Source: an uncultured archaeon
GTDB taxonomy: Archaea; Thermoproteota; Nitrososphaeria_A; Caldarchaeales; Wolframiiraptoraceae
DNA length: 64,000 nt
Assembly: GCA_938083505.1 (NCBI GenBank)
Contig: CALKCF010000007.1
Location: 32,001-96,000, forward strand
Reading direction: 5' to 3'
Shown: positions 13,498 through 64,000 of the stretch, piece by piece
How positions within the stretch are numbered: position 1 is the stretch's first letter
Layout: each line of letters opens with the position of its first letter
The notes under the pieces: model-generated
Databases searched by the model: none
What the model was told of the DNA's origin: nothing
The model's input: only the letters and a program-made list of their open reading frames with translations
Made by a program: the position numbers and the translations under genes

Positions 13498-13505
13498 AGA
13501 ATAAC

Positions 13506-46371: not shown

Positions 46372-46373
46372 AA

Positions 46374-46745: not shown

Positions 46746-46792
46746 GTATTATGAGTAGAGTTTATTAGTTAGAGCAGCGCAATTTTATAAAA

Positions 46793-47008: not shown

Positions 47009-47032
47009 TGGTTACGTCATTGGTGACGTTAT

Positions 47033-48160: not shown

Positions 48161-49276
48161 ATGAATACACGACAAGAATCGCCAGATTACGTAAGAATAA
48201 GCCTTGCCGCAGCCATGACCTTAGGGTTGGTGAATGGTACGTTCTTCAGGGGTGCAACCCTTTATTGCGTTAACCTCCTCTTAACGTACAGTGATGGGTG
48301 TATAGGAAGGTGCGCATACTGTGGGCTTTCTAGAAGCAGGGCTTTAGAGAAAGACTGGACTGACTACAGCTTCATACGCGTTAATTGGCCGATGGTTAGC
48401 TTAGATGAGGTCATTGAAAGGATGGATTCATGTCCGCATGTTGAAAGGGTTTGCATCTCGATGGTGACGAATCGCAGGGCACCTAAGGACTGTCTAACTG
48501 TCGTCAAGAGATTGCGTGAAAAAACGGACTCGATATCCTGCCTGATAACGCCGACAATAATAGACCGTAACTGGCTTGAAGAAATGAAGAGGGCAGGAGC
48601 CGATAAGATAGGTATAGCGATAGATGCTGCGACACCAGAGCTTTTCGATAAGCTCAGGGGTAGATGGGTTGGAGGGCCTCACCGCTGGGAGAAATACTGG
48701 AATACAGTCAAAGAGGCTGTAGAAGTATTCGGTAGGTATAATGTCGGTATTCACTTGATAGTTGGCCTTGGTGAGACAGAAGAGGAGATGGTCAAGTGCA
48801 TACAAGCAGCTTACGATATTGGCGCATTAACACATCTCTTTTCATTCTTCCCGGAGGATGGGTCAGTTATGGAAAGGCACCCCCAACCTCCAATCGGACA
48901 ATATAGGCGCATACAACTTGCCCGTTACTTGATCAATAAGGGTCTAGCGGTCGTTGACGGCATGCGTTTTGACAGCTCTGGAAGATTGATAGATTTCGGC
49001 TTAGAAAAAGATGTGCTCGATGAGGTGATAGAGAGCGGACTTCCGTTTATGACGTCAGGATGTGCTAGCAAGAAAAGGGATAATGCGTGCAATAGACCCT
49101 TCTCGGACTATACACCATACCACGCCCTAATCGGTGAGATGCGCAATTATCCCTTCGTACCAACAAAGGATGACATTAAACTGATAAGAAGACAGCTACA
49201 GGATTATTCAAACATTCCAGTCAAAGTATGGGTGGAAGGGCTAGAAAGTCTATTAGGTTGTATTGAACATATTTAG
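48161..49276 (+). CDS. lipS2: Radical SAM lipoyl synthase subunit LipS2
   Basis: CIGRCAYC plus TSGC...CNRP (variant of TXGCPXC(N/D)RP); lipS1/lpl context. Confidence 0.82.
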   Translation: MNTRQESPDYVRISLAAAMTLGLVNGTFFRGATLYCVNLLLTYSDGCIGRCAYCGLSRSRALEKDWTDYSFIRVNWPMVSLDEVIERMDSCPHVERVCISMVTNRRAPKDCLTVVKRLREKTDSISCLITPTIIDRNWLEEMKRAGADKIGIAIDAATPELFDKLRGRWVGGPHRWEKYWNTVKEAVEVFGRYNVGIHLIVGLGETEEEMVKCIQAAYDIGALTHLFSFFPEDGSVMERHPQPPIGQYRRIQLARYLINKGLAVVDGMRFDSSGRLIDFGLEKDVLDEVIESGLPFMTSGCASKKRDNACNRPFSDYTPYHALIGEMRNYPFVPTKDDIKLIRRQLQDYSNIPVKVWVEGLESLLGCIEHI

Positions 49277-49305
49277 GTTAGGCGAATAACATCACTGGTG
49301 GTTGA

Positions 49306-50298
49306 ATGGATCAGTGCTTTGGCCTAAAATTTGACGAGCTTAAACCATTGATAGAAAAAGCGTGGACGATGACGCGTACAAACTTCCCAGAAGAGGTCCA
49401 TTTCTACTTTCCGGACATGGTGTACATTGAAACATCGTTCTATAGACCCACAAATGTTTTTCGCTTCCCTGGAATATCGATAACTGGCACAGTCTGCAGA
49501 TTACAATGTGATCATTGTAAGGGTGCGCTCTTGAAGAGTATGCTTCATGTAACCACACCCGATGCCTTATTTGATGTATGCTTTAGGGTAAAAGAGGCCG
49601 GTGGTGTTGGTTGCCTTGTGACTGGCGGTAGCCTTGAAGATGGAAGCGTTCCAATAAAGAAATTCATACCTGTGTTAAAGAGGATAAAAGATGAGCTAGG
49701 ACTTCATGTAGTAGTACACACAGGCTTGGTTGACGAGGAACTTGCTGAAGGTCTGGCTTATGCTGAAATTGATGCTGTTATGATAGATATAGTAGGCTCT
49801 GATGAAACTATAAATGGTGTGCTGAAGTTAAATAAAACAGTTGCAGACTACGAAAGGTCTTTGAAAAATCTGAAGAAATATGATGTACCTATGGTGCCGC
49901 ATATAGTTGCTGGCATACATTACGGTCAGATTCTGGGCGAGAAGAAAGCCGTAGAGATCGTTTCTAAATATAGACCAGAGGCTCTTGTGATAGTTGCTTT
50001 GATGCCTCTTGCCAACACACCTATGGAAAACGTCTCCCCTCTTAGCCCGATAGATGTCATACGTGTAATTCTTTTTGCTAGGTTTTTAATGCCAAATATT
50101 CCTATAACATTAGGCTGCGCCAGGCCAAGAGGTGCGTTAAGGTCTGCGACAGATGTTTTGGCATTAAAGGCTGGAGTTAACGCCATCGCCTATCCTAGCG
50201 AAGAAGCTTACAAGTTTGCAAGAAGACTAGGTCTGAACGTCGTCGTCCATGAGAGTTGTTGCTCATTGATCTATCGGAATATTGCTTTGAAGGTGTAG
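49306..50298 (+). CDS. lipS1: Radical SAM lipoyl synthase subunit LipS1
   Basis: CRLQCDHC, GCAR and CC motifs. Confidence 0.85.
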   Translation: MDQCFGLKFDELKPLIEKAWTMTRTNFPEEVHFYFPDMVYIETSFYRPTNVFRFPGISITGTVCRLQCDHCKGALLKSMLHVTTPDALFDVCFRVKEAGGVGCLVTGGSLEDGSVPIKKFIPVLKRIKDELGLHVVVHTGLVDEELAEGLAYAEIDAVMIDIVGSDETINGVLKLNKTVADYERSLKNLKKYDVPMVPHIVAGIHYGQILGEKKAVEIVSKYRPEALVIVALMPLANTPMENVSPLSPIDVIRVILFARFLMPNIPITLGCARPRGALRSATDVLALKAGVNAIAYPSEEAYKFARRLGLNVVVHESCCSLIYRNIALKV

Positions 50299-50302
50299 TG
50301 CA

Positions 50303-51883
50303 TTGCGTCAGTGGAGGCTTATTGATACGGGTCTTAGACCTGCATCTGAGAATATGACACTTGATGATGTGATATTGGAATGTAAAGCAAGGAACTTGGT
50401 GCCAGATACTGTAAGATTTCTGAGGTTCAGTCCACCAGCGGCCCTCGTTGGGTATCACCAAGACGTCTATCAAGAGGTCCGATTGGAGTATGCTAAAGAG
50501 AACGGAATAGATGTTAACAGGAGGCTAACAGGAGGTGGTGCTATATACTTTGATAGCTCTACTATTGGATGGGAGGTGATAGCATCAAAGCGATCACTAT
50601 GCACGAACTACTCCTTAGAATGGATCTTCAAGACGGTGTGCGAGTGTGTCGTAAATGCCCTAAAAGAGTTTGGTTTAGACGCTTGCTTCCGACCTAGGAA
50701 CGACATAGAGATAAATGGCAGGAAGATATCGGGTACGGGTGGTGTTGAGAGAGGGGATGCTTTTCTCTTCCAAGGTACACTTCTTGTAGACTTTGATGTC
50801 GAGACCATGATAAAGGTTCTAAAGATTCCGATAATAAAACTCAAGGGTAAGGAGCTCGAATCAGTGAAGAGGAGGGTAACCTGCCTTAAGTGGGAGTTAG
50901 GTTATACGCCAGATTATGAGGAGATCAGGAACGCATTAATCAAAGGTTTCAAAGAAGTTCTTAACATAGAACTCAAATTTGGTGACCTTACTGATTATGA
51001 GTTAGAACTTTTTGAAAAAAGTTTACCATGGTTTAGTTCTGAAGAATGGGTGTTCATGGATAGACGTTCACCAAAAGGTTCTACTATAGTGCATGCGGTT
51101 GATAAGAAGCCAGGTGGTGTCATTCGTGTATCATTGAATGTAGATAAGGATACAAACGTTATAAAAAGTGTGCTAATAACAGGTGATTTTTTTATATTCC
51201 CACAAAGAGCAATCATGGATCTGGAGGCTGCTCTTAAGTTCATCCCGGCAGATGCTGATAAGATAAGGGAAATAATTCACAGGGTATTTGAGGAAAAACA
51301 GGTTAGGACGCTCAGCTTAACTGAAGGTGACTTCGTGGAGCTTATACTCGAGGCCTTAGAGAAAACTGAGCTTGAATCTTACGGCATAGATGCTGATGAA
51401 ATTAACAATATATATCCAATAACAAATGATGTCAAGTCAACATTGAAGAACGGTTTTGATTATATGCTGTTACCATACTGCTCTAAAATGGTGTCATGTA
51501 TGTATAGAAAAATTGATGGGTGTATAAAATGTGGTGAGTGTACAGTTGGTGAGGCATACCGTTTAGCAGAAGAATTTGGTCTAAAGCCCATAACAATTCA
51601 TAACTTTGAACACCTAATAGAGGTTTTGAAGGTGATGAAGGTTAAAGGTGCAAGGGGCTTTATTGGGTGCTGTTGTGAAGCATTCTATGTAAAACATCGT
51701 GACGAGATGAGAGAGGTGGGTGTGCCAGGGATAATAATAGATATCGAGGACAAAACTTGCTATGACTTGGGAAAGGCAGAAGAGGCATATAGGGGCAACT
51801 TCGAGGCCCAGACTAGACTGAATCTGCCCCTCATCAAGAAGATCTTGGTAGCATCCTTAAAAATGGGTGGTAAAAATGCATAA
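50303..51883 (+). CDS. Lipoate:protein ligase (catalytic and accessory domains) fused to a Cys-rich C-terminal domain
   Basis: RRLTGGGAIYFD, RNDI, GRKISG, QGTLL, ITGDFF; C-terminal PYC..C..CIKCGEC..GCCC. Confidence 0.9.
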   Translation: MRQWRLIDTGLRPASENMTLDDVILECKARNLVPDTVRFLRFSPPAALVGYHQDVYQEVRLEYAKENGIDVNRRLTGGGAIYFDSSTIGWEVIASKRSLCTNYSLEWIFKTVCECVVNALKEFGLDACFRPRNDIEINGRKISGTGGVERGDAFLFQGTLLVDFDVETMIKVLKIPIIKLKGKELESVKRRVTCLKWELGYTPDYEEIRNALIKGFKEVLNIELKFGDLTDYELELFEKSLPWFSSEEWVFMDRRSPKGSTIVHAVDKKPGGVIRVSLNVDKDTNVIKSVLITGDFFIFPQRAIMDLEAALKFIPADADKIREIIHRVFEEKQVRTLSLTEGDFVELILEALEKTELESYGIDADEINNIYPITNDVKSTLKNGFDYMLLPYCSKMVSCMYRKIDGCIKCGECTVGEAYRLAEEFGLKPITIHNFEHLIEVLKVMKVKGARGFIGCCCEAFYVKHRDEMREVGVPGIIIDIEDKTCYDLGKAEEAYRGNFEAQTRLNLPLIKKILVASLKMGGKNA

Positions 51884-52946
51884 GTTTGACGTGATAGTGG
51901 TTGGTGGTGGCCCTGCAGGTACTGCGTGTGCGATCAGATGTGCTAAAATGGGATTCAGGACAATGTTATTGGAAAAATCAACAAGTTACAGAAAGAAATT
52001 CTGCGGCGGCGTCACACCAACCGTAACAAGAAATTTGATAGAATTCGAGCTAGGGTTGAGAATACCTCAATCGGTGCTGTCTGTCCCAGAAAGTTTAGGA
52101 CTTTTCTACGTACCTCCCAGTGGGAAGTGCAACGGTGGTACAATGAAGAATTATAAATTACTTAATTTGCGTAGGGTTGACTTTGACGAATGGTTAAGGG
52201 AAGAGGTTAAGACACATAACGTCGACCTTTTATACCGTGCAGAATTTCTCGAGTTGAAGTTAGGAAAGGATAACCTGTTAAAGGTGAATGTGAATGGTAG
52301 TCTGGAGGTCTTTGAAGCTACTTATGTGGTTGGTGCTGACGGGGCTATTTCAAAAGTTCGTTCTTGCCTGTTTCCAAACTATAGGTCTAAAATACTCACT
52401 GTTGTACAAGAAGTTTGGGAGGGGGAAGGAGACTTTAAAGATAATTTTTACATAATTCTTAACAGCAAAATCGTGCCAACTTATGGTTACGTAATTCCTA
52501 AAGACGGAAAAATTCTTGTAGGTTTTGGCTTTGAAAGTGGAAGGATTAACTTGCAGCTTTGTATGACCAAACTTTTGAGTTTACTAAAAGATGAGTTTTC
52601 GTTCAAACCTGTGGAGATGAGTGCAAGAGAAATCGCACCCGTACCGTTCGCTATTTCACCTATAGGTCTCGAGAATGTCGTACTCGTTGGAGATGCCTGT
52701 GGGTTATGTAACCCCTTCTCAGGAGAAGGTATAAGATTTGCGATCGAGAGTGGTGTGGCCGCTGCGGAATCTATTAAGATATCACAAGAAGAGAACGCAA
52801 AGTTGACATCGGTTTATGAATCAAAAATAGATGGGTTAAGGGATTTTTTGCTCAGAATGTATGCATTCGTAAACGAGCTTGATGATGAAAAGAGAGAGGA
52901 TTTCGTCAGGAAGGAACTGTCACGCCTTAACGTATTCGGTATATAA
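51876..52946 (+). CDS. Geranylgeranyl-reductase-like FAD oxidoreductase, LipT-like by context
   Basis: GGGPAG, CGG, VGADG, YGYVIP, GDA...PFSGEGI; overlaps the lpl stop. Confidence 0.8.
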   Translation: MHKFDVIVVGGGPAGTACAIRCAKMGFRTMLLEKSTSYRKKFCGGVTPTVTRNLIEFELGLRIPQSVLSVPESLGLFYVPPSGKCNGGTMKNYKLLNLRRVDFDEWLREEVKTHNVDLLYRAEFLELKLGKDNLLKVNVNGSLEVFEATYVVGADGAISKVRSCLFPNYRSKILTVVQEVWEGEGDFKDNFYIILNSKIVPTYGYVIPKDGKILVGFGFESGRINLQLCMTKLLSLLKDEFSFKPVEMSAREIAPVPFAISPIGLENVVLVGDACGLCNPFSGEGIRFAIESGVAAAESIKISQEENAKLTSVYESKIDGLRDFLLRMYAFVNELDDEKREDFVRKELSRLNVFGI

Positions 52947-52947
52947 C

Positions 52948-53994
52948 TCAGCAAATCCTCGGAACCGGGTCACCGATCGGTGGGGGTAGGAGCCTCCTAC
53001 CCCCTATTACCGTCTCAAGTACAACATGTTCGTACTTATCGGTGGCCTCACCTATTATCTCGGCATCCTTACCTTCTGGCGTCTCGCGTATGGCTTCTAA
53101 TACTGCCTCGGCCATTTGAGGCACCACAGCGATTATAACTTTTCCTTCGTTTCCTACCTCAAGCGGATCTATGCCCAGCATCTCGCAAGCAGCTCTAACA
53201 CCTTCCCTTATCGGTATTTTCTCTTCTTTTATGTAAATTCCGACTCCTGACTTTTGAGACCATTCATTAAGAGCATTTGATAGGCCGCCCCTTGTCGGGT
53301 CCTTCATAGCAACAATTCCGCCAACCTCTAAAGCCCTCTTTATCATTTTGTTAAGGGGTGCGACGTCAGACTTTACGAGAGTATCGAACCCGTAACCCTC
53401 CCTCGAGGAAAGTACGGCTATGCCGTGATCGCCGATAGTCCCAGAAACTATTATCTTGTCACCCGGCCTGACGTTAGAATCAAGTAACCATCTTGTCTCT
53501 ATGTTCCTGTAACGCTTAACGACACTAAGATTGTGGTCTAATGCTGCCTGCCTCCTTCCGATACCGGACGAGTTTATGATGAATTTGTCTAAAGCACCCC
53601 TTTCCACAACTTTTGTGTCGCCGGTTGCTACAAATACGTCGGCTTCTATGCAAGTCTGTCTTATGCTTAAAATTATGCTCTCAAAATCTGACAGCGAAAA
53701 CCCCTCCTCTAAAACAAAACCCATCGCGAGCGCAACGGGCTCTGCCCCCAGCACAGATATGTCGTTTACTGTTCCTGAGACCGCCAACCTCCCTATATCG
53801 CCGCCTGGAAAGAATAACGGCTTAACAGTATAAGAATCTGACTTTATTACAGTATCATTCACAACGGCGGCATCGTCCAGCGCCTCTAAGGGTACTTCAG
53901 CATTCCCCCATGCAAGGTTCTTGATTATGAAGTCCTTAATCAGAGACTGCATCACGACGCCCCCTGCACCATGAGCCATCGTTATCCTATCCAA
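52948..53994 (-). CDS. hypE: Hydrogenase maturation carbamoyl dehydratase
   Basis: HGAGG, GTVND, DPTRGG, C-terminal PRIC. Confidence 0.96.
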   Translation of the reverse strand: MDRITMAHGAGGVVMQSLIKDFIIKNLAWGNAEVPLEALDDAAVVNDTVIKSDSYTVKPLFFPGGDIGRLAVSGTVNDISVLGAEPVALAMGFVLEEGFSLSDFESIILSIRQTCIEADVFVATGDTKVVERGALDKFIINSSGIGRRQAALDHNLSVVKRYRNIETRWLLDSNVRPGDKIIVSGTIGDHGIAVLSSREGYGFDTLVKSDVAPLNKMIKRALEVGGIVAMKDPTRGGLSNALNEWSQKSGVGIYIKEEKIPIREGVRAACEMLGIDPLEVGNEGKVIIAVVPQMAEAVLEAIRETPEGKDAEIIGEATDKYEHVVLETVIGGRRLLPPPIGDPVPRIC

Positions 53995-54141
53995 AGGGCA
54001 TCAACCTCCCTGTGTTAACATAAACAACACTACTATTTTATTTCATACATAGGCAAGGTCGAAATCTTTAAAGCACCCTCTTGCTACCTAGTTTTATTTT
54101 ATTTTGTATATACGAGCATAATACGGAATGCGTCAATTAAA

Positions 54142-55202
54142 ATGCGCCCACATCTCCGTAAGGTCATAAAGCTGGTAGGTCTGCCCTAGCCGTGACGTTG
54201 CCCAAAGAGTGGGTATCCTTAATCAAGCTAAAAGAGGGCGATTATGTCATCATAGAGGATACCGAAGAAAGCCGCGTCAAAATAAAGAAAGCTGATAGTG
54301 AATTTGGGATTCCACCTACTGTCTGTGTCATTAATGCGGATGTTTGCACATCGCAAAATATGCTGCGGAGGATCATAATCGGCGCATACTTGGTTGGTCA
54401 CAAAATCATTTGGGTACAGACGGAGAGTGGTTTCAAACCTAACGACATCGAAGGAATAAGAGCTCTGACAGAGATTCTTGTAGGACTTCACGTAACGGAT
54501 CAGACTGATAACATAATCATACTCCAGAGTCTTGCTGACCCTTCTAGACCAATGATCGATAGCTCTATCCGTAGACTCTACTTAATATCTTCTAGCATGT
54601 ACGAGGTGGCGCTTGGCATCCTTTTAGGCGAGGAGGATCCAAAACGTCTTGAAGACATCAAGGCGCTTGAGATAGAGTGTGACAAAATTTATTGGCTTGT
54701 AACAAGACAACTACTTTTATCGGTCAATGATAGGGCTTTAGCAGAGGAGCTAGGCATAAGGTCTAACCTTTGGCTTTTAGGAAATAGGACAGTTATTAGG
54801 ATGTTAAAAAGTATAGTTGCAGATAGTGAGTGTATATCTAGATATGTTGAAAACTTACTGAAGCTTGGCTATAAACTCGACGCGGAGACCGCACGTTGGT
54901 TTACCAACATACGTGAGGAGATCAGAAAGTTATCGAATATGGCAATTGATTCTCTTATTACGAGAGACTTGATGGGTGGCAATAATGCTGTTGAATCTGC
55001 GAACAAGCTTGCGAAACTTCTTGAGGCAGCGGAGATGGTGGCTCCAAAAAAATATAATGTTAACGTCTGCCCATCAATATCAGGCATAGTCAGGTCTTTA
55101 AGAAATATCGTTCTAAACTATAGATACGTAGGGGAGGTTGCAATTAACAGGTCAGTTGAAGAATCTGGTGAATACATGAATATAGACACCGGTGATTTTT
55201 AG
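54142..55202 (+). CDS. AbrB-PhoU family regulator with a 1-nt frameshift near 54172 (ORF track start 54192)
   Basis: MRPHLRKVIKL/GRSALAVTLPKEW matches the paralogue RKVIKLGRSALCVTLPKAW; PhoU helical domains follow. Confidence 0.8.
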
Positions 55203-55253
55203 GAGAAAACTTAGAGCATCATATTTAAATAGAGTATAAAAACATAAAACCGT

Positions 55254-55709
55254 ATGAATAATGAGGCCAACATAAACTCCTTAATTTTTAACGTAAAGTT
55301 ACAATGGGACCATTCCACAGGTGTTGAGGCCTTTACTAAAAGGGGCATAATTTATCTAGATATGCCTAAGGAGTTTGGTGGTCTGGGAAGACATCCTTGC
55401 CCAGATGAAGTGTTTCTTTCTGCTTTGGGAGGGTGCATGATAACTACGTTAATTTACTTCCAGCGACGAATGGGTGCAAAGATAGAAGGCATAGAAGTTA
55501 ATGTTGATGGAGAGATCAAGCTGGATAATGGAGGATACAGAATCACTAATATAAAAATTAAGTTAAGGGTTCTAGTAGAAGAACCAGAACTTGAAAAGGC
55601 TGCAAGATGCGCAAAGTTAGCTATAAAGTATTGCCATTTAACTAGGTCTATAGAACCAGCTATTGCTGTAACTACGGAGTACGAGATCGTTAGTCCAAAT
55701 CATTCCTGA
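55254..55709 (+). CDS. OsmC/Ohr family protein
   Basis: DMP..GG.G..P, ALGGC and KYC two-cysteine motifs. Confidence 0.88.
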   Translation: MNNEANINSLIFNVKLQWDHSTGVEAFTKRGIIYLDMPKEFGGLGRHPCPDEVFLSALGGCMITTLIYFQRRMGAKIEGIEVNVDGEIKLDNGGYRITNIKIKLRVLVEEPELEKAARCAKLAIKYCHLTRSIEPAIAVTTEYEIVSPNHS

Positions 55710-55785
55710 AACACAAGCTAATTATTTTTAAAGAATTTTAAAAAATAAGTTAATGTTTATTTGTAATTAGGTTTGATAAAAAAAT

Positions 55786-56223
55786 GTGGTAGTTATGGTG
55801 AAGTTGTTTGACAAGTACGAGTTTCCAGAAGGTTTGTACTACTCTAAGGACCATCTCTGGTTAAAAATTGAGGGTGATGTTGTAAGAGTTGGCGTTACAG
55901 ACCTAGCACAACAAGCGGCTGGTCCGATAGTGTATGTAAGACTCGTACCAAAGGGTAAGGTTGTGGAGGCGGGTAAGCCTTTAGGGACTATGGAAACCGG
56001 GAAATGGGTTGGACCTTTGAAGTCTCCCGTATCCGGAACGATAGTTGAGGTTAATGAAGCCCTTAAATCTCAGCCTAAACTTTTGAATGAAGACCCGTAC
56101 GGAAAGGGGTGGTTAGCAGTTATAAAACCCTCAAAACTTGAGGAAGAACTGAAGGGGTTATTCTCGAAAGTTGAAGATATGATTCCATGGTTACAGGAGG
56201 AGTTACCGAAACTTATCAAATAA
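55786..56223 (+). CDS. Lipoyl-carrier protein (GcvH/LbpA-like), lipoyl Lys intact
   Basis: GVTD, METGKWVGPLKSPVSG, NEDPYGKGW. Confidence 0.92.
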   Translation: MVVMVKLFDKYEFPEGLYYSKDHLWLKIEGDVVRVGVTDLAQQAAGPIVYVRLVPKGKVVEAGKPLGTMETGKWVGPLKSPVSGTIVEVNEALKSQPKLLNEDPYGKGWLAVIKPSKLEEELKGLFSKVEDMIPWLQEELPKLIK

Positions 56224-56262
56224 CCAACTTGGTTGCTAATTGTTTAAAATAAAACTTTTTTG

Positions 56263-57432
56263 CTATATTAAACTCAGTTGTTCCGCTATCAGCTGTGATA
56301 TGTCAATAACGCGCTTACCGTCTTGCATTGTGGTGGCTGTTTGAGTGAATGTTTGAACGCATGCAGGACATGCCGAGACAATAATATCAGCATTCGTGGA
56401 TGTTAATATTTCATATCTTCTTTGGGCGAGATTATCGGCCAAGTATGGATTGACTAACTTCAGGAGACCTCCAGAACCACAACATATTGATTCCCTACCA
56501 AAATACTTAGGCTCTATGAATGTATCTGTAATACTTTGTAAAACCATTCTAGGCTCTTGAATGATGCCGGATATTCTTCCGAGCTCACATGGATCATGAT
56601 AGGTTAATTTTACGTCTGCCTTAGGAACTGCAAGCTTTCCAGAAGTTATGTATGAGTTGAGAAGTTGAGTTGAATGTAGTACTTCGAATCCAGGTTTTTT
56701 ACCCAAGAGTTTCGGATATTCATGCTTAAGCGCAATGTAACAGCCTGGGCAACCTGTCACAACTTTCTTTGCACCAATAGACTCTATCATCTCAACATTA
56801 TGGAGTGCAAAGGTTCTGGCCTCTTTAATACCACCGGAGAGAACGAGTGGATGGCCACAACACCATTCGTCCTTTAACAACGTCCAATCTTCATTCATAG
56901 AATTTAAAATCGACGAAAACGCCTGCGCAATTGACTGAACCCTACCGGAGAACGATGTTATACAGCCAACAAAGTAAACGACTTCTGCCGAATCCTTAAA
57001 ATTTACGTCAGCACTGGTGTAAGTAACCCAATCCGTCCTTGATACATTGTCCATCATGTAGATGTTCTTTGATTGTTGTATTATTTCAGATAATTTGATA
57101 ACGCCCTGAGGCACTAACCTATGTTCATATAATATCTCCCTAATTTTTAACCATATTTCTAAAACATCGATCTCTGTATGACAAACTTCTTTGCATAATC
57201 CACACAATGTACAGTTAAAAATCCTCGTAGACAATGGTTTTCCAAGTTTACGTAGCTTTTGTTCATCTAGTTTACCACCATTTCCTAAAAATTCTTTAAG
57301 AGCGAATATTTTGCCCCTTGGCGATGCCGACTCCCATCCCAAAAAGTAATAAGTAGGGCACTTCTTCACACAATAACCGCACTGAGCACATGCGAAGACA
57401 TTCTCTAAATGCAATTTTGGTAAGATGAACAT
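56263..57432 (-). CDS. HdrD/GlcF-like Fe-S oxidoreductase (two [4Fe-4S] motifs, two CCG domains)
   Basis: CAQCGYCVKKCP, CTLCGLCKEVC, WCCG, YHDPC, CCGSGG, ACPAC. Confidence 0.9.
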   Translation of the reverse strand: MFILPKLHLENVFACAQCGYCVKKCPTYYFLGWESASPRGKIFALKEFLGNGGKLDEQKLRKLGKPLSTRIFNCTLCGLCKEVCHTEIDVLEIWLKIREILYEHRLVPQGVIKLSEIIQQSKNIYMMDNVSRTDWVTYTSADVNFKDSAEVVYFVGCITSFSGRVQSIAQAFSSILNSMNEDWTLLKDEWCCGHPLVLSGGIKEARTFALHNVEMIESIGAKKVVTGCPGCYIALKHEYPKLLGKKPGFEVLHSTQLLNSYITSGKLAVPKADVKLTYHDPCELGRISGIIQEPRMVLQSITDTFIEPKYFGRESICCGSGGLLKLVNPYLADNLAQRRYEILTSTNADIIVSACPACVQTFTQTATTMQDGKRVIDISQLIAEQLSLI

Positions 57433-57433
57433 C

Positions 57434-58864
57434 TTACATCACTCTTCTTAAAAACCACATACCATCCATGAACATGCTATACAGCTTCCCAGGGAGGGGG
57501 AAACCCAACCTGAGTCTAACCTCTATCATTTTGCCCGGGTTTAGCACGTTCCATGGATCTAGCATGCGTTTAATTCTTTTAAGTTCGCGCTTTTTCTCCG
57601 GTTCTGCTCTCTCCATAAATTGGAAGTTCCATAATCCATAACCGTAAGGTTTACCTCCAGCCTTTATGGCAGCATCAAGTACTTTTTTTGTTATTGCCGC
57701 ACTCATAAGATATCTGAGAGATTTTCTTTCATCACAAAGGAATAGCTGGAACATTAGAGCTTTGTATCTCGATATAAACATGACCTCAACTTCTACATCT
57801 AAATGTGCTTGGTTACCCAGCTGCCAACAGTATTTCACCATGTCCAATATTTTATGTGTTGGTATTATGAACTCATTGCCTAGGATACTTGGTCCCCACT
57901 TCTTAATCTTCAGCGTATAAAATCTTTCTTCCCATTCACGTCTTGCCTCATCTTCTGGAACAAGATATCCCCGATATCGGTTTACTATGTTGTCCAATGT
58001 AAGGTACTGCTTATAAACCTCATACCTATTACCATCAACGCATCCAAAGAAATACGTGTCAGACTCAACGTAATCCTTTGTCCTGACAAATCCGAAGGCT
58101 TTTAGGACAAGGGAATGCGGACTTGTTAGTCTCAGGACTTCTTGAGCTGACATCAAAGCGTTGGCAAAATTGCTGAAGTTCGCCATAAACGGCACCTCCA
58201 CATCGCTTTTCGGAATTAGCTTCAAAGTTAAATCAGCAAATATGCATAAGATCCCTTCAGATCCGAAAAGTTGTGATAGGTTAGGGTTGCTTTTGTCATC
58301 AACCACAACGATCCTTCCAGACGGAAGGACTACGGTTGCTTTGACAACGTTCTTGAGGAATGGACCGTACTTAAGAGAACCATAACCTATCCCACCAGTT
58401 GCCGCCCAGCCACCAACGGTTGAGCTTAACGCACTTGAAGGGTATGTTGGTAGCTTCCAACGCGTCTCTCGCAGAAAATGCATGATGTCTTCCCATACGG
58501 CTCCACATTCAACGGTCAGTAACCCATTTTTTTCGTCGAAATGAACGATCCTGTTAAGCCCCGTCAAGTCTAAAATTATGCCACCCTTTACAGGTATTGT
58601 GCCCCCGAATCCCCATGTAGCGCCACCCCGAGGTATAACGGGGATCCTGTATTCATTTGCTAATCTCATAATTTCTGCTATATGTTCTGTAGTCTTCGGT
58701 CGTACTATTGCGACAGGTGTTGTGTCAAAGAGTGGCTTTACAAATTTGGGTAAAACTGCCAAGTCGTGAGAATAAACTAGCTTTTCAAGTAGATCTACAG
58801 ATACGTATTCTTGTCCTAACTTGTTAATAACTTCGTTCAAAAAATCACTAGAAGTGCTCATCAC
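57434..58864 (-). CDS. FAD-linked oxidoreductase (GlcD/Dld-like)
   Basis: PRGGAT, STVGG, GSEG, DPWNVLNPGK. Confidence 0.9.
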   Translation of the reverse strand: MMSTSSDFLNEVINKLGQEYVSVDLLEKLVYSHDLAVLPKFVKPLFDTTPVAIVRPKTTEHIAEIMRLANEYRIPVIPRGGATWGFGGTIPVKGGIILDLTGLNRIVHFDEKNGLLTVECGAVWEDIMHFLRETRWKLPTYPSSALSSTVGGWAATGGIGYGSLKYGPFLKNVVKATVVLPSGRIVVVDDKSNPNLSQLFGSEGILCIFADLTLKLIPKSDVEVPFMANFSNFANALMSAQEVLRLTSPHSLVLKAFGFVRTKDYVESDTYFFGCVDGNRYEVYKQYLTLDNIVNRYRGYLVPEDEARREWEERFYTLKIKKWGPSILGNEFIIPTHKILDMVKYCWQLGNQAHLDVEVEVMFISRYKALMFQLFLCDERKSLRYLMSAAITKKVLDAAIKAGGKPYGYGLWNFQFMERAEPEKKRELKRIKRMLDPWNVLNPGKMIEVRLRLGFPLPGKLYSMFMDGMWFLRRVM

Positions 58865-58874
58865 GTCCTCATGC

Positions 58875-59294
58875 CTATTTTGTTAGTTCGTCAAAGTACT
58901 TTAGGTCTTCTTCATAATTGATCGGCTTAAGCACGGCGATCCAGCCTTCGCCGTAGGGGTCCTCATTTATAAGCTCAGGCTTTTCTCTCAGCTTCTCATT
59001 GAGCTCAACTATCCAGCCGGATACTGGACTTCTTAATAGCACCACACGCATGCCATGTTCAACAGAGCCGAAAGGATGCCCCCTAGTGATTAGACGCCCC
59101 TTCGGAAGGGCTCTAACGAATTCTATCGTGCCCACAAAGTCTGCAATGTCCTTTCTAAGACCAACCCGTACAAGAATCTCAGAGTAATCGGTTACTTGCT
59201 CAAGCCTCGCCCACATACCGTGGCTAACCTTCGAGACGAACAACTTTCCTACGAGCGCGGAAATGGGCATTACCATTTTCTTAAACCACCTCAA
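58875..59294 (-). CDS. GcvH-like protein lacking the lipoyl Lys
   Basis: FGSVEHGMRVVLLRSPVSG (Met at the Lys position), INEDPYGEGW. Confidence 0.85.
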   Translation of the reverse strand: MRWFKKMVMPISALVGKLFVSKVSHGMWARLEQVTDYSEILVRVGLRKDIADFVGTIEFVRALPKGRLITRGHPFGSVEHGMRVVLLRSPVSGWIVELNEKLREKPELINEDPYGEGWIAVLKPINYEEDLKYFDELTK

Positions 59295-59386
59295 AATAGT
59301 GCTTAATTACAGTGCTATATCATTCGTAACTTATTGTTTCATATAGCTGACAAATATCACGTATACGCTATATATAAATATCAGGC

Positions 59387-60493
59387 TTGCCGTTTTCACA
59401 TAGAGAATTGAATACAGAAAGCAGTCGTTTTTATGGCCGCACACTAAGAAAGGTAATAAAGCTTGGTCGATCGGCGTTATGTGTTACTTTACCAAAAGCT
59501 TGGGTTGATGCTGTTGGGATAAAGGAGAATGATTATTTAGTTGTAAGACAGAGTGGTGATTCGTTAGAATTAAGCAAAGTTGAACAAGAGGAGGGTGTTG
59601 GACCACCGGTTTGTATAATAAACGTGGATGCATGTGTAGAACCTTATTCTATCACTAGAGTTTTGATAGGAGCTTATATAGCTGGTCACGAAACGATCTG
59701 GCTACAATCTAAAAGACCATTCACACAGAAACAGATCGAGGAAGTTAACACAATAACAAGAAAACTTATTGGAGTTCACGTCGTGGATAGTTCTGAAAAT
59801 ATCATAATTATTCAGAACCTTTCGAACCCCATAAGACCTTCTATGGATAGTTCCATCAGGAGGTTCCATAGCCTTGTAGCGCATATGCTTGATAGTGCGG
59901 TAAGTATGCTATCAAGCAGCAACCAAGATGCTATTAAGCACATTATGAGTATAAGTGAAGAATGTGATAGGCTTTACTGGTTAACGGTAAGGCAACTTAT
60001 AAGGGCAGTCAGCGACCCAAGTGTACGAGAAGCCCTTGGGATAAAGTCAACTCTATGGTTGCTTGGCAATAGGCTAGTCTTACTTTTGCTTAAAAGAGCA
60101 GTCAATTTATGCGAGTCGATTGCTCTCTCAGTATATGAAATATTTACGAGTGGGTGTGGCATTGAGAAACGCATCGTAGATTGGTGCATAGATTTTTGCA
60201 CAACGCTAAAGCATACGTCTCAAGGTGCGATGGACTCTCTCCTATCAAGGGACCTTTTGCTAGCAAACAAAGTAATATCACAAATCGACGCCTTAGTTAA
60301 AGAGAAAATAGAGATTGGTGAAAAGTTGACCAGTAACAGTAAATCGTTCAGACATTACCTTTTCCGAATAATACATGCTCTTAAAGAAATTGGTTTATGC
60401 TATCGTCAGATTGCAGAAGTGGCAATAAATAGGTCACTAGAGGAATCTGGAAAATTTGTTACTATTGAATGCCCACTCAAGGACTTCGACTAA
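59387..60493 (+). CDS. AbrB-PhoU family regulator
   Basis: RKVIKLGRSALCVTLPKAW AbrB domain plus PhoU repeats; paralogue of 54142..55202. Confidence 0.85.
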   Translation: MPFSHRELNTESSRFYGRTLRKVIKLGRSALCVTLPKAWVDAVGIKENDYLVVRQSGDSLELSKVEQEEGVGPPVCIINVDACVEPYSITRVLIGAYIAGHETIWLQSKRPFTQKQIEEVNTITRKLIGVHVVDSSENIIIIQNLSNPIRPSMDSSIRRFHSLVAHMLDSAVSMLSSSNQDAIKHIMSISEECDRLYWLTVRQLIRAVSDPSVREALGIKSTLWLLGNRLVLLLLKRAVNLCESIALSVYEIFTSGCGIEKRIVDWCIDFCTTLKHTSQGAMDSLLSRDLLLANKVISQIDALVKEKIEIGEKLTSNSKSFRHYLFRIIHALKEIGLCYRQIAEVAINRSLEESGKFVTIECPLKDFD

Positions 60494-60501
60494 AGTTAAA
60501 T

Positions 60502-61689
60502 CTATAGCAGGTTGTTCTGCTGAACAATCAGCTGGCTCATGTCTAACACTTTGGGGCCTTTTTCAATTTTTGGTTCAACGGATGCGAAGGTTTGCACGCA
60601 TGTCGGACATGCTGAGAGCATATATTCAGAACCCGTGTCCTTCAAAATTCTCAACCTTTGAATGGCGAGCTGCTTCGAAAGTTCTGAGTTTAACATTTTT
60701 AGCATACCACCAGAGCCATAGCACACACCTTCCATACTATGGCCATATGGTTTAACAAACTCTCGTGTTACTTGCCTAATAACGTTCCTAGGTTCTTCGA
60801 TAACGTCCTTGAGTCTACCCAATTCACAAAGATCATGATACGTAACTCTAGCTTCTAAAATTGGCATCCTTAATTTATCATCAGCTATATATCTGTTGAG
60901 CAGTTCTGTGAAATGGAGCACCTCAAACTCTAACTTATAAACCCGTCACAACGGCCTTTAGCACTAACGGACGTTAGCTGTTTTATGTTGCGCTTTACTA
61001 ACTTTATAGCCTTACCAATTCCACTGCTAACTGTGAGAGGATGACCACAACAAGCCTCATCCTTCAAAAGGGTCCAATCCTCACCCAAACAGTTCAATAT
61101 CGAAGTTATGACTGCAGGTATGTCTTGCGCTCTACCCTGATAAGACGAGATACAACCAACAAAATATACTATGGTAGCACTATCTTTAACTTTGACATCC
61201 ACTCCTGTGTATAGCGACCAGTTGGTTCTTGCAGAATTATCCACACTAAAAACGTTCTTCGTCCCGTTAATCATATCATGGAGATTATTTAAGAAGTCAA
61301 CAGCGCAATGGACGTTGCCAAGAAATCCCCATGAAATATTCTTTCATGGAGGTTATAAGCGATGGTGTGTCTATACTGATTGGGCAGAATACGCTACACC
61401 TACCGCATAGCGAACAGTTTAGAAATAGAGCATCGGCCAGTTCCCAAACCTCTTCATCTGATGGGGACCTTAATCCAAAAAGTTTTGCTTTAAAACTATG
61501 GTCTTTACGAACCAGAGATCTAAATCGTCTGATAATTCCGCCACAACTCGTGGGAAAGCCCAATGGATGTGAATTAGAGTTCAGAGGCCTGTATAGCGAG
61601 CACTCTTCTCTACATATCTCGCACCTGACACAACCATCAAGCTCGACAATCTGCTTAACACTTAACGGTATCCTTTTCGCTTTTGCCAT
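60502..61689 (-). pseudogene. HdrD-like Fe-S oxidoreductase in three fragments
   Basis: CVRCEICREEC and CSLCGRCSVFCP; YFVGC, ACCG; YHDLC, VCYG, ACPTC. Frameshifts; the CPGC segment is missing. Confidence 0.85.
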
Positions 61690-61692
61690 ACC

Positions 61693-62313
61693 TTAATTCA
61701 CGTCTCTCACAGTTTTAGGTACGGAGTTGACCAACATGACCATAGGACCAGCTAATGCGTGCCAGAGCCTACCTGAGTAAGGTATAGCGCCCACGAAAAC
61801 ACCGAGGAAAAATCCGGAGGTTGGCCATAGAACGTTATAGAACAATTCAATTTGGTAGGACTTAGACCTACCATGAGCTGAGCTATGGCGTATGCTATGA
61901 ACATAAACCTACTTGAATCTGGAAAGCCAAATTTCACAATTGTTGTAGCTTCAGCCATGTATCTAAAGAAGAACCATATCACGGGCATAAAAAAGGTCAA
62001 TAGCATCAGTTATTGAATACTCAAAACACATCCTGCTATATCCGCGGCTATATGGTTCGAAAGTATTAACAAAACGTAAAAAGAAACAAAGAATGCTTTT
62101 TCTAATCTTCTCGATCGTTCATATTTGTAGAACCTACGCTTACCAAAGACATTGATGATGAATGTCTTAATAACAGCAACTAAAGAACGAGGGTTCATGA
62201 TCATTAACAGAGCTTTCTTAATTGTTCCAAATATTCCATAATATTCCGATGAGTGGGGCTATTGTCCCTATCAGAGAAAATATTGAGGCAAAAAAGATTG
62301 CGTCTGGTGTCAT
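61693..62313 (-). pseudogene. NarI/HdrE/DsrM-like membrane subunit, degraded
   Basis: Hydrophobic fragments with stops and frameshifts, ending FVGAIPYSGRLWHALAGP; immediately upstream of the HdrD-like pseudogene. Confidence 0.55.
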
Positions 62314-62344
62314 GTGCTTCCACCACGAAAGTATGTTTACAGCA

Positions 62345-62723
62345 GAGGAGGTTATCAAAAACCCGCAACTGATAAACGAAAACCCTTATGGTAGATGTTG
62401 GATGGCCGTCCTGAAACTAAGCAACATTGAAGAACTGGATACGTTACTTTGAAGATGAAGTTTACTTCAACTATCAAACCCGTGATGGGACTGCGTAGTA
62501 TGAGTATCTTTCTTCCGTGCTTTATTGATTCGAACGTGTATCCTTTATTTATACATCTACCCTTTAGTAAGACCCTGAAGCTTTCTATTCGTCCTAACGT
62601 TTTGATAACAAAATCCTTTAACTCCATCCTTATCACCGACGATGTCAAAGATTGCTGCTCAACTTTAACACAGAAATATTCATATGTTAATAGCCGCTCC
62701 CGAAGTATACCTTTCTCTGACAT
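62345..62723 (-). pseudogene. GcvH-like paralogue (Arg at the lipoyl position) whose 3' end is inverted
   Basis: Minus strand reads ...SIKHGRKILILRSPITGLIVEVN to 62460; the continuation EEVIKNPQLINENPYGRCW is on the plus strand at 62345-62452. Confidence 0.8.
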
Positions 62724-62867
62724 GCTTGTTCTCCTCAGATATCGCGAGAATGCAGTAGAGTATAACCTACGTCGTATAAAGACTTAGCATGATATGCTGA
62801 GTTATGTATGTGTCAGTTTAACAGGAAGTGCAATATCTTAAAATAAAAACAAAAACCTTAGAAAATT

Positions 62868-64000
62868 CTATAATAGGCCGAGTTGTCTAGCAAACAATTC
62901 CGCTACGTCTAGGACTTGCATCTTTATACCAATCTTCTTTAACCCATCCATTAGCGTTATCTTGCAGGCTGGACATGCGGAGGTAAGGATTTCAGCTCCT
63001 AGGACTTGAGCTTGTTTCACCCTCTTTTCAGCTATGTTTAACCTTAGCTCGTCGTTCACAGCTTGGAGAATGCCCCCGCCCCCACAACAGCGCACGTCCC
63101 TTTTGTTCTCGGGCATCTCCTTGAAGAAAGATGCTACTGTAGTAATTACACGCCTCGGCTCGTCTATCACGCCGCTGAGTCTTGCAAGCTCGCATGGGTC
63201 GTGGTAAGTTACAATGGCAGACTCTTTTTCTAATCCTTTGAGGGGTATATGTTCCTTTTTGATGTATAGATCAAGAAATTCCATGAGATGCATAACATCA
63301 AACCTTAGAGCCCTGCCTATCAAAAAAGGATACTTTTGCTTAATCATCCTCACACATCCTGGACATGCTGATATCACCAGCCTGGCACCCAAGTTTTCTA
63401 TTGCCCTAACGTTATGTTCAGCCATATTCCTAGCACCATCTTCATCTCCTATCATAAGCAGCGGTGCACCACAGCACCACTCATCCTCACCTAGGAGTGT
63501 CCAATTTACTCCTGCATGGTTTAAGATCAGAGATGTTGCGTATGCTATTTCTTGTGTGACCGCCTTGTATGAAGATGTGCACCCAACAAAATACACAACA
63601 TCAGAACATTCGTTCATCTTAACGTTCTCAAGACCTAAGTAATCAACCCACATCGCTCTTGCATCATTCCCCACACCGTAGGTGTTGCAAGTATTAAGTA
63701 TGAATTTATCAACCTCCTTAAGTACTGACGGGTGTTTGTTAAATCTATAAACAATTTTCCTGAATAGTTCCCAAAGCGTATCTGTTTGTATTCCGAACGG
63801 ACATACGGCCATGCATCTACCACAAAGGGCGCACTCGTAGACGCTTTCAACATACTTCTCAATTTCATTTAACTTCTCTATCTTTAATCGAGAGAACGTA
63901 AGGAATGGGCTCATGCCGCTCTTTATTATTTTAAGCATAACAGAGGCCCTACCTCCTGGCATAATCTGTGGTTTTTTCAGAACCTCATAAGTTGGGCAAT
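62868..64000 (-). CDS. HdrD-like Fe-S oxidoreductase, 5' end outside the window
   Basis: CALCGRCMAVCP, YFVGC, WCCG, CPGC, YHDPC, CCGGGG, ACPAC. Confidence 0.9.
   Translation of the reverse strand, partial: CPTYEVLKKPQIMPGGRASVMLKIIKSGMSPFLTFSRLKIEKLNEIEKYVESVYECALCGRCMAVCPFGIQTDTLWELFRKIVYRFNKHPSVLKEVDKFILNTCNTYGVGNDARAMWVDYLGLENVKMNECSDVVYFVGCTSSYKAVTQEIAYATSLILNHAGVNWTLLGEDEWCCGAPLLMIGDEDGARNMAEHNVRAIENLGARLVISACPGCVRMIKQKYPFLIGRALRFDVMHLMEFLDLYIKKEHIPLKGLEKESAIVTYHDPCELARLSGVIDEPRRVITTVASFFKEMPENKRDVRCCGGGGILQAVNDELRLNIAEKRVKQAQVLGAEILTSACPACKITLMDGLKKIGIKMQVLDVAELFARQLGLL

Follow-up and report, generated by a model that had tools for sequence, protein, structure and literature searches.

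The stretch of DNA analyzed in this work (hereafter, the window) comprises 64,000 nucleotides of contig CALKCF010000007.1 (positions 32,001-96,000), belonging to the genome of a hot-vent archaeon, a 'Ca. Terraquivivens' (Caldarchaeales, Wolframiiraptoraceae), of 1.154 Mb in 10 contigs, 98.5% complete; gene calls were taken from a listing of open reading frames (ORFs) and from Pfam and NCBIfam scans. We focused on a small GcvH-fold protein, a putative lipoyl carrier whose gene is surrounded by genes for lipoate assembly and for Hdr-type enzymes, and on the possibility that the lipoamide bound to it might serve these enzymes as a substrate. The carrier gene (55786..56223, + strand, with ATG 55795 as the likely true start; GCV_H PF01597, 133 bits) codes for a protein with the lipoylation site METGKWVGP, in which the lipoyl lysine is present, and with no Cys; its closest named record belongs to 'Ca. 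Terraquivivens ruidianensis' (93% identity). On the same strand, and separated by gaps of 51 and 76 nt, it is preceded by the genes for an AbrB-PhoU regulator (regulator 1, 54192..55202; MazE_antitoxin/AbrB plus PhoU) and for an OsmC-family thiol peroxidase (55254..55709; PF02566, 60.3 bits) with Cys61 and Cys127.

All four genes of the sLpl(AB)-LipS1-LipS2-LipT type lie 3-8 kb upstream of the carrier on the + strand. They code for a LipS2-type radical SAM lipoyl synthase subunit (48161..49276; Radical_SAM, with NF053743 as by far the best match at 225.6 bits, below its 270 cut-off), a LipS1-type subunit (49306..50298; Radical_SAM plus BATS; NF053742, 235.5 bits, cut-off 230), an Lpl(AB) lipoate:protein ligase fused to DUF116 (50303..51883; LplA-B_cat 164 bits, Lip_prot_lig_C, DUF116 41 bits) and a FAD oxidoreductase of the geranylgeranyl-reductase family (51867..52946; FAD_binding_3; TIGR02032, 152.7 bits, just under the 158.8 cut-off), which is labelled LipT-like because its gene follows lpl, the same order as in Tanabe 2023 (PMC10332631). 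The DUF116 part of the ligase (residues about 380-488) is rich in Cys (CxxCxxC, GCCC), and the same fusion is found in a congener, in a Nitrososphaerales metagenome-assembled genome (MAG; loci L138/L139) and in a metagenome contig (L141); this context suggests a role of the domain in lipoate assembly, and a literature search on DUF116/PF01976 returned only unrelated eukaryotic DUF116x matches. The whole cassette sits inside the genes for [NiFe]-hydrogenase maturation, with hypB-hypA-hypC-hypD (45607..48118, +; Pfam cobW/HypB, HypA, HupF_HypC, HypD) before it and hypE (52948..53994, -; AIRS plus AIRS_C; 94% identical in a congener) after it.

On the opposite strand, downstream of the carrier, three genes form an operon: gcvH2 (58875..59294; GCV_H 80.5 bits), coding for a GcvH-fold protein that reads EHGMRVV at the lipoylation site; the gene for a flavoprotein of the VAO/GlcD fold (57434..58864; FAD_binding_4 PF01565, 127.6 bits, and a weak FAD-oxidase_C match), hereafter GlcD*; and, as last gene, hdrD_a (56263..57432; CCG 108 bits plus Fer4). 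A second AbrB-PhoU regulator (59387..60493, +; PhoU plus AbrB) is transcribed divergently from this operon, an arrangement occurring also at three other loci (L138, L140, and L143). Beyond it, a second group of genes on the - strand (module B, 60502-62729) includes gcvH3 (about 62345..62729), fragments of the gene for a membrane protein with 4-5 transmembrane (TM) segments (61696..62319, recognized by tblastn with the congener protein), and hdrD_b (60502..61689; Pfam Fer4, CCG, CCG), which is split into three ORFs by two frameshifts, visible as frame changes in tblastn. The gene for HdrD_c (405 aa; 62868..64085, -; CCG 108 bits, with the full ORF and the Cys pattern) starts just past the window end and is adjoined by a NarI/HdrE-like gene supported by Pfam (64082-64849, -), after which, on the same strand, come hycI, mvhA, mvhG, mvhD, hdrA (659 aa), hdrB, and hdrC, and then hypF. 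A complete MvhADG-HdrABC set (HdrC, HdrB, the long HdrA, MvhD, the small and large [NiFe] subunits and the protease) is thus adjacent to the window, and the lipoate/carrier/HdrD block is part of a larger hyp, MvhADG-HdrABC, and HdrDE supercluster, in which the candidate partner enzymes of the carrier all lie within about 26 kb.

The gene content listed in the original prediction, which had been made from the letters of the window, was confirmed by Pfam and NCBIfam for the lipS2-lipS1-lpl-lipT-like cassette (LipS2 below its own cut-off), and OsmC, the Cys-free GKWVG carrier, the GlcD-like fold, and the two AbrB-PhoU regulators also lie where they had been placed. Other items have to be corrected: the "two more carrier paralogues" have Met and Arg at the lipoyl-lysine position and are no carriers; the three HdrD-like CCG proteins are present, but HdrD_b is broken by its two frameshifts and HdrD_c extends past the window, to 64085; and the only Pfam-supported NarI/HdrE-like gene lies outside the window, the membrane gene inside it being fragmented and without a Pfam match.

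The identity of the carrier was examined by aligning 105 GcvH-fold proteins from related loci. Compared with Thermus GcvH (1ONL), the carrier has its Lys at the aligned position of the lipoyl Lys, and two types of lipoylation site can be recognized among the 105 proteins, that is, E-[ST]-G-K-W-x-G (KW-type hereafter), to which the carrier belongs, and the canonical E-S-V-K-A/T-x-S-D. An ESGKWVGP-type motif is also borne by a GcvH-fold protein of an Aquifex genome, encoded beside LipS1 and sHdrC1B1A..C2B2 in a genuine LbpA context. A quick maximum-likelihood tree (119 columns, with many forks unresolved) places the canonical-motif proteins in a single group with moderate support (SH-aLRT 87), and the carrier outside it. 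The core net charge points in the same direction, being 0 for the carrier and, as medians, -3 for the KW-type proteins and -11 for canonical GcvH (62 canonical-motif sequences); low acidity is reported to be the feature letting sLpl(AB) ligases tell LbpA from GcvH (Dahl-group preprint 10.64898/2026.10.01.755906). Two Cys, one near each terminus, are typical of most LbpAs and missing in some archaeal ones (PMC6067878), and no chain named LbpA is present among the PDB matches of the carrier. Judged from these sequence features, the carrier is LbpA-like and not a glycine-cleavage H protein. The phylogeny called for by the original prediction is in agreement with this placement, and its view that the carrier is unlike the sHdr LbpAs does not hold: the absence of Cys apart, motif and low-acidity surface are shared with them.

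The rest of the genome is also in agreement with such an identity. No match to GcvT (PF01571), GcvP (PF02347), E2 (PF00198), or DsrC (PF04358) was found genome-wide, and GcvT is absent from all six congeners searched; a glycine-cleavage relic can be ruled out, GcvT and GcvP being without match in the genome. The absences noted in the prediction for the window, including the concern that gcvP or gcvT might lie just outside it, therefore extend to the whole genome in the case of GcvP, GcvT, and E2, whereas HdrABC does exist directly past the window, in a Mvh-associated form and not in the sHdr arrangement. Only three GCV_H matches exist in the genome, all at this locus (the carrier, GcvH2, and GcvH3), and the carrier is the sole Biotin_lipoyl match and the sole lipoyl-acceptor domain found. 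Nevertheless, two lipoylation sets are encoded, LipB plus LipA and Lpl(AB) plus LipS1/LipS2 and LipT, together with one LpdA. The former set maps in the lipA-lpdA-lipB cluster at the other side of the window, whose genes, all on the + strand, code for the canonical lipoyl synthase LipA (11225..12097; Pfam LIAS_N plus Radical_SAM), a LpdA-like dihydrolipoamide dehydrogenase (12094..13497; Pyr_redox_2 211 bits, Pyr_redox_dim 128 bits), the only Pyr_redox_dim protein in the genome, and a LipB-type octanoyl/lipoyl transferase (13506..14252; TIGR00214, 176.9 bits, cut-off 83.55; LplA-B_cat). LpdA is found in 28 of 31 relatives, including those without GcvT and relatives without KW-type carrier and LipS1; within the order, LipS1 is confined to exactly those genera with KW-type carriers. 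The co-occurrence of this cluster with LipS1/LipS2 in an archaeon without E2, GcvT, or GcvP matches is an observation in its own right, LipB normally using acyl-ACP, thought to be absent from archaea (PMC10332631). An additional canonical-motif GcvH is encoded in congeners (G004:C2:186349-186519, L026; G001:C14, L027), although the genus is without GcvT; it was not found in the present assembly.

As far as the two paralogues are concerned, GcvH2 has Met and GcvH3 Arg in place of the lipoyl Lys, and they are therefore not lipoylatable. They cluster with Lys-less proteins of other archaea (clade support 98), and 34 positions are invariant among six sequences 44-51% identical to GcvH2. The same division recurs across genera: the GcvH-fold protein encoded immediately before the GlcD-like one has R or M in place of the Lys, and a second, K-bearing ETGKWVGPLK copy is located by the ligase or OsmC. 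A second and independent type of Lys-less H protein was observed in three genomes of another family of the same order (G020, G023, and G026; L020-L022), where a KW-type carrier lies 5 kb from a GcvH-fold paralogue with Asp at the Lys position, branching within the canonical-motif group; homologues of Hdr or GlcD were not detected up to a distance of 20 kb.

The flavoprotein next to GcvH2 has also departed from its relatives. The best PDB match of GlcD* is LctD from the Acetobacterium lactate dehydrogenase/Etf complex (7QH2, E = 1e-28), but HAGDGNLH and SGEHGIGY of LctD are replaced in GlcD* by FISRYKAL and GGKPYGYG, respectively; the metal/substrate motifs HxGDGNxH and GEHG are thus missing, and GGKPYGYGLWN is found instead. 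The loss is identical in the homologues linked to KW-type carriers in Bathyarchaeia, Desulfosporosinus, and Formimonas, whereas canonical GlcDs at other loci keep both motifs; among the 120 best database homologues of GlcD*, 119 have neither of the canonical motifs and 53 have a PYGxGxWN-type motif. A canonical GlcD (HAGDGNVH, GEHG) followed by HdrD is encoded elsewhere in the same genome (G000:C4:716-3400), and this pair is presumably the real D-lactate/2-hydroxyacid dehydrogenase of the organism; given its existence, GlcD* can be considered a specialised paralogue. The identification of GlcD* as a flavin dehydrogenase in the original prediction is thus borne out for the fold (FAD_binding_4) and not for the hydroxyacid catalytic motifs, and GlcD* is probably not a hydroxyacid dehydrogenase; an ordinary lactate/glycolate dehydrogenase is ruled out by the missing catalytic motifs and by the canonical paralogue elsewhere.

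A three-chain model of GlcD*, HdrD_a, and GcvH2 gave a binding score of 0.77 for GcvH2, the best of 3 controls reaching 0.01; this mark is attained by 58 of 80 solved complexes and by 2 of 110 mismatched pairs, a calibration which is only rough for a model built from our own alignments and with three chains. The three runs share at least 96% of the contacts, and the partner pLDDT is at least 85. In the modelled interface, the GcvH2 loops FVRxLPKGR and PFGS, which are invariant in the subfamily, rest on residues 227-376 of GlcD*, i.e., its cap domain, with a few contacts between GcvH2 and the HdrD N-terminus. According to this model, GcvH2 is predicted to be a subunit of GlcD*. Since a GcvH-fold subunit is modelled on the cap domain and the bacterial versions keep the Lys there, one possibility is that, in the course of evolution, a lipoyl arm took the place of the hydroxyacid facing GlcD*.

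The next issue concerns the degree of conservation of the linkage between the carrier and the Hdr-type genes. The carrier survey comprised the 80 best genomic relatives, 79 of which are outside the genus. Although these relatives are not independent of each other, a CCG protein, HdrA, or MvhD is encoded within 10 kb at 18 of the 30 KW-type loci outside the genus, and at 16 of 21 if only KW-type loci of at least 8 kb are considered, and at just 2 of the 49 loci with the canonical motif only. The positive loci belong to Bathyarchaeia, Desulfurococcales, Thorarchaeota, Methanomethylicia, Methanobacteriota, Bacillota, Sumerlaeota, WOR-3, and Myxococcota, and a linkage of the carrier to HdrD/GlcD is conserved in the first four of these groups, in Sumerlaeota, and in Nitrososphaerales, Desulfosporosinus, and Formimonas. 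The closest parallels to the present locus have the gene orders GlcD-HdrD-carrier(K)-Lpl-GcvH(R)-GlcD*-HdrD in Bathyarchaeia (L033), hypFED-Lpl-carrier-membrane::HdrD-OsmC-HdrCBA in Desulfurococcales (L034), and E2-AhpD-like-LipB-LipA-carrier(K)-GlcD*-HdrD-DUF6506-Lpl-carrier(K)-Lpl(AB)-LipT-LipS2-LipS1 in Desulfosporosinus (L041/L043). In Desulfosporosinus sp. FKB (L041), the AhpD-like CMD protein (8044-8388) and the DUF6506 protein (13365-13667) are both encoded inside the cluster, and it is possible, by analogy, that the former parallels OsmC as a thiol-peroxidase partner. The reverse search, starting from GlcD*, led to the same picture: homologues at 51%, 48%, 48%, and 36% identity share a set composed of GCV_H, CCG, two radical SAM proteins, Lpl, and LipT, to which Mvh, HdrBC, and OsmC are variably added. 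The Nitrososphaerales MAG harbors MvhDGA, GCV_H(K), OsmC, CCG, AbrB-PhoU, GCV_H(R), GlcD*, HdrD, two radical SAM proteins, Lpl::DUF116, and LipT; around the Thermoplasmatota homologues of GlcD* at 32-34% identity no such gene set was found. The hyp and Mvh-Hdr genes flank the cassette in the present genome, and hyp genes do so also in two other archaeal lineages (L034 and L075). The clustering of these genes is not due to chance; it represents a conserved system, whose linkage is kept across archaeal and bacterial phyla, as the original prediction would require.

The Hdr modules and their variation among close relatives also deserve attention. HdrD_a has two [4Fe-4S] motifs and two complete CCG domains (10 Cys); all ten CCG Cys are kept in HdrD_a, HdrD_c, and HdrB, and those of HdrD_a show no variation across 11 homologues. 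A congener has the complete arrangement, at 78-94% protein identity, and the MvhADG-HdrABC genes are syntenic and 86-92% identical there. Module B, on the other hand, is decaying in this genome: hdrD_b has frameshifts near 61322 and 60950 (a single frame of 412 codons is intact in the congener) and a CC-to-CY change in its second CCG motif; the membrane gene, intact in the congener at 281 aa (4-5 TM by hydropathy), is fragmented; and the 3' end of gcvH3 (about 62345-62455) carries a 111-nt inversion relative to the congener. All these sites are intact in congener G004. A separate Logan contig, although derived from the same reads (the probable source run, a marine metagenome), is identical over 60300-63000 and reproduces the lesions, so that the frameshifts and the inversion are unlikely to be artefacts of one particular assembler. 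This run is the only one listed as containing the region, and no RNA run is listed for 54000-60500. Fusions of the module-B membrane protein with HdrD (676-686 aa) occur in other lineages; no family was recognized in the Pfam scan of the 281-aa congener protein, and the NarI/HdrE-like label of the in-window gene is thus unconfirmed. Among the congeners, G004-G006 keep the whole supercluster, while G001 and G002 are without it and have only canonical-motif GcvH; in G003 (G003:C11:120620-124021, L010), both AbrB-PhoU regulators are kept together with OsmC, the carrier, LipS1, the Mvh region, and a Lys-less GcvH2 that has become an orphan, and the precise losses described below make this congener a deletion series provided by nature. 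As a separate observation, the hyp genes of the window are adjoined by a gene for a radical SAM protein with an HMPTM-type N-terminal zinc ribbon (43876-45444, -).

Based on these data, the most economical explanation would be that Hdr-type enzymes use the protein-bound lipoamide as a dithiol/disulfide shuttle, OsmC being one of its sinks; in our opinion, the chances for and against this explanation are evenly balanced. According to this idea, the carrier would be lipoylated by its own Lpl(AB)-LipS1/LipS2-LipT cassette, and its lipoamide would cycle between disulfide and dithiol, representing a protein-bound counterpart of CoM-S-S-CoB or DsrC that CCG-site Hdr-type enzymes would reduce or re-oxidise. 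The H2-dependent MvhADG-HdrABC might couple lipoamide to H2, the soluble GcvH2-GlcD*-HdrD_a complex might act on it, and two membrane-linked modules (the NarI-like protein with HdrD_c, and the 4-5 TM protein with HdrD_b) might link it to the membrane; the dithiol form might, in this lineage, also feed the OsmC peroxidase, LpdA might provide a link to NAD(H), and the Lys-less paralogues would act as fixed subunits docking on the GlcD* cap domain. We infer the action of the CCG sites on lipoamide from gene linkage, and the direction of the electron flow and the GlcD* reaction are likewise inferred. DsrC, proposed by Hua et al. 2018 as the Mvh-Hdr substrate in another Aigarchaeota bin (PMC6053391), is ruled out here, the genome having no PF04358 match. 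Lipoamide is favoured as the Hdr partner because, of the genes nearby, that of the carrier alone provides a dedicated dithiol/disulfide, no partner of the CoM/CoB or DsrC type being evident.

Several points weigh against this idea. The redox potential of lipoamide is about -290 mV, versus about -140 mV for CoM-S-S-CoB, so that little driving force would be left for an H2-dependent bifurcation. Besides, not all CCG proteins are disulfide reductases, the domain being used differently in those of the GlcF, GlpC, LutA, and SdhE type, and the best NCBIfam matches of HdrD_a are TfrB and LdhH, both below their cut-offs. The predicted operon of the carrier consists of the regulator and OsmC and includes no Hdr gene, and in archaea the protein beside GlcD* is without a lipoyl arm, so that the flavin reaction is unexplained. 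Lastly, G003 has lost GlcD*-HdrD_a, module B, and HdrD_c/NarI while retaining the carrier; since the HdrD modules have been lost there and module B is decaying here, they are dispensable for the role of the carrier, whatever it is.

Some of these facts would fit a purely antioxidant function, according to which the only task of the carrier would be to supply electrons to the OsmC hydroperoxide reductase, with LpdA and NAD(P)H recharging it as in known Ohr/OsmC-lipoamide systems, while the substrates of the Hdr proteins and of GlcD* would be unrelated. Such a function would account for the tight co-directional AbrB-PhoU-osmC-carrier unit, for both catalytic Cys being present in OsmC, for LpdA being encoded within the window, and for the OsmC-carrier adjacency at L034, L075, and L138, which survives in G003 without the HdrD modules; the AhpD-like CMD gene of the Desulfosporosinus cluster and the naming of a GcvH-like protein of Hyphomicrobium as probable OsmC donor (preprint 10.64898/2026.10.01.755906) are also in line with it. 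However, OsmC is found at 1 of the 30 KW-type loci outside the genus, versus 18 of 30 for the Hdr-type genes, and the occurrence of LpdA in relatives without KW-type carrier and LipS1 implies that it does not track the system; moreover, neither the Lys-less paralogues heading the GlcD*-HdrD and HdrD_b operons nor the position of the cassette inside the hyp/Mvh-Hdr cluster would be explained, so that we consider this function unlikely to be the only one. Still less probable is that GcvH2-GlcD*-HdrD_a belongs to lipoate assembly, by delivering electrons to LipS1/LipS2, processing the nascent dithiol, or acting as a scaffold, instead of using the cofactor. The Lys-less protein might indeed mimic the substrate carrier, and the gene order is suggestive at L138/L139, with their tight same-strand run GCV_H(Arg)-GlcD*-HdrD-rSAM-rSAM-Lpl::DUF116-LipT, at L141, where GlcD*-HdrD lies between the lipS genes, and in Desulfosporosinus, where GlcD*-HdrD is flanked by two lipoylation sets. 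Nevertheless, LipS1, sLpl(AB), LipT, and LipS2 of Thioalkalivibrio, expressed from one plasmid, are reported to have demonstrated the lipoylation pathway in bacteria without GlcD*/HdrD (PMC10332631), LipS1 and the carrier persist in G003 without GlcD*-HdrD_a, and many KW-type loci have HdrD or HdrABC with no lipoylation genes nearby.

A further scenario is a sulfur metabolism as in sHdr organisms, the carrier and the CCG enzymes processing protein-bound sulfane sulfur or polysulfide, by oxidation or by H2-dependent reduction, and not just passing on electrons. Carrier and assembly genes of the type found here (LbpA/sLpl(AB)/LipS1/LipS2/LipT) are so far known from sHdr sulfur oxidisers (PMC6067878, PMC10332631), four TusA-like genes map elsewhere in the genome, on other contigs, and relatives are reported to reduce sulfur with H2 (PMC9246946). 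We consider this scenario improbable, however, in that the sHdrC1B1AHC2B2 arrangement is missing, HdrA is the long 659-aa Mvh-associated form, TusA/DsrC family matches are lacking at the locus and a DsrE domain among the Pfam matches of the genes scanned, and the carrier does not have the two Cys typical of most LbpAs (PMC6067878). As for a chance neighbourhood, in which a GcvH relic would lie beside a D-lactate/glycolate dehydrogenase (GlcD plus GlcF/HdrD), it would be suggested by the generic GcvH, GlcD, and GlcF-like matches in Pfam and NCBIfam and by the usual annotation of hdrD-glcD pairs in papers on archaeal MAGs (GlcD being called lactate dehydrogenase in PMC9723716); it hardly appears tenable in view of the absence of GcvT/GcvP from the genome and of GcvT from the congeners, of the loss of the GlcD* catalytic motifs together with the canonical GlcD-HdrD pair elsewhere, and of the linkage conserved across phyla in both search directions. 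On the whole, the earlier interpretation of the locus as a lipoyl-carrier/HdrD system is partly supported.

If the role of lipoamide as a shuttle for Hdr-type enzymes is accepted, one might go further and speculate that, in non-methanogenic archaea as well as in many anaerobic bacteria, lipoamide bound to an LbpA-like carrier plays the part of the physiological heterodisulfide, within a full lipoate energy/redox cycle, a tentative extension that we regard as rather more doubtful than the shuttle itself. In such a cycle, MvhADG-HdrABC would reduce lipoamide with H2, bifurcating to ferredoxin, and the membrane HdrD modules would re-oxidise it, conserving energy, with a new GcvH-fold::GlcD*::HdrD complex and OsmC branching off the same lipoamide pool, in an organism for which lipoate would have no other use. 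Which substrate is used by the Hdr-type complexes, widespread in both non-methanogenic archaea and anaerobic bacteria, has been asked for two decades without an answer, and DsrC accounts only for the sulfate/sulfite reducers. The genome analyzed in this work represents an unusually clean test case, with 1.15 Mb, one lipoylatable protein found, two lipoylation routes, and no glycine cleavage, 2-oxoacid dehydrogenase, or DsrC found. If the carrier is indeed the Hdr substrate, lipoate would gain a role in hydrogen/energy metabolism beyond the sHdr sulfur oxidisers, and many 'GcvH', 'glycolate oxidase', and 'HdrD' annotations in MAG reconstructions would need revision. The Lys-less GcvH-fold subunit and the catalytically remodelled GlcD-fold flavoprotein are, in addition, new protein subfamilies, each with a concrete candidate partner. 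In the literature searched, no paper naming LbpA or 'lipoate-binding protein' together with HdrD or GlcD was found, and the Wolframiiraptoraceae paper (PMC9246946) has no mention of Hdr or lipoate.

The locus can be compared with several known systems. It shares with the GlcDEF glycolate oxidase and LctD (7QH2) a FAD_binding_4 flavoprotein followed by a GlcF/HdrD-like subunit with Fe-S and CCG motifs, but GlcD* is without the metal/substrate His/Glu motifs, has PYGxGxWN, and is predicted to carry a GcvH-fold subunit on its cap domain. With the lipoyl-dependent Ohr/OsmC peroxidases (Cussiol et al. 2010, as cited in preprint 10.64898/2026.10.01.755906) and the mycobacterial Lpd-SucB-AhpD system it has in common a two-Cys OsmC beside a lipoyl protein and LpdA in the genome; here, however, the carrier is free-standing and LbpA-like, no E2 was found, and Hdr/hydrogenase could replace NADH/Lpd as the reductant. 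The Culexarchaeia, also non-methanogens of the TACK group, have Hdr and [NiFe]-hydrogenase genes beside GcvH in their Ehe hydrogenase/Hdr cluster, and Kohtz et al. 2022 suggested in passing that GcvH might hold an unknown disulfide for Hdr (PMC9723716); their description included neither a lipoylation cassette nor Lys-less paralogues, GlcD*, or a survey across phyla, and the hydrogenase there is of the membrane-bound group 4 and not Mvh. The hdrCBA-mvhDGA-hycI order, the NarI/HdrE-like cytochrome b gene beside HdrD, and the CCG Cys recall the MvhADG-HdrABC/HdrDE of methanogens (PDB 5ODC). Terraquivivens, in contrast, is described as a non-methanogen, in which CoM-S-S-CoB is not expected (mcr and CoM/CoB synthesis were not searched) and which has no DsrC match, and the proposed substrate would be protein-bound lipoamide, at a much lower potential.

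The closest resemblance is that to the sHdr-LbpA system of Hyphomicrobium denitrificans, Thioalkalivibrio, and Aquifex, in which both the association of LbpA with sHdr and the LipS1/S2 pathway are well documented (PMC6067878, PMC10332631); the 2026 Dahl-group preprint (10.64898/2026.10.01.755906) notes that LbpA-like proteins occur also in organisms without sHdr. A low-acidity GcvH-fold carrier with the ESGKW motif, a dedicated Lpl(AB)/LipS1/LipS2/LipT cassette, Hdr-type neighbours with CCG domains, and a coexisting LipA/LipB route are common to both. The present locus differs in having no sHdrC1B1AHC2B2, no TusA/DsrC, and a Cys-free carrier, and in embedding partners of the HdrD type, a degenerate GlcD-fold flavoprotein, membrane anchors, and the full MvhADG-HdrABC set, together with Lys-less paralogues and a DUF116-fused ligase, in an anaerobic Caldarchaeales host that is not known as a sulfur oxidiser. 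The locus is, therefore, a variation on the LbpA-Hdr theme.

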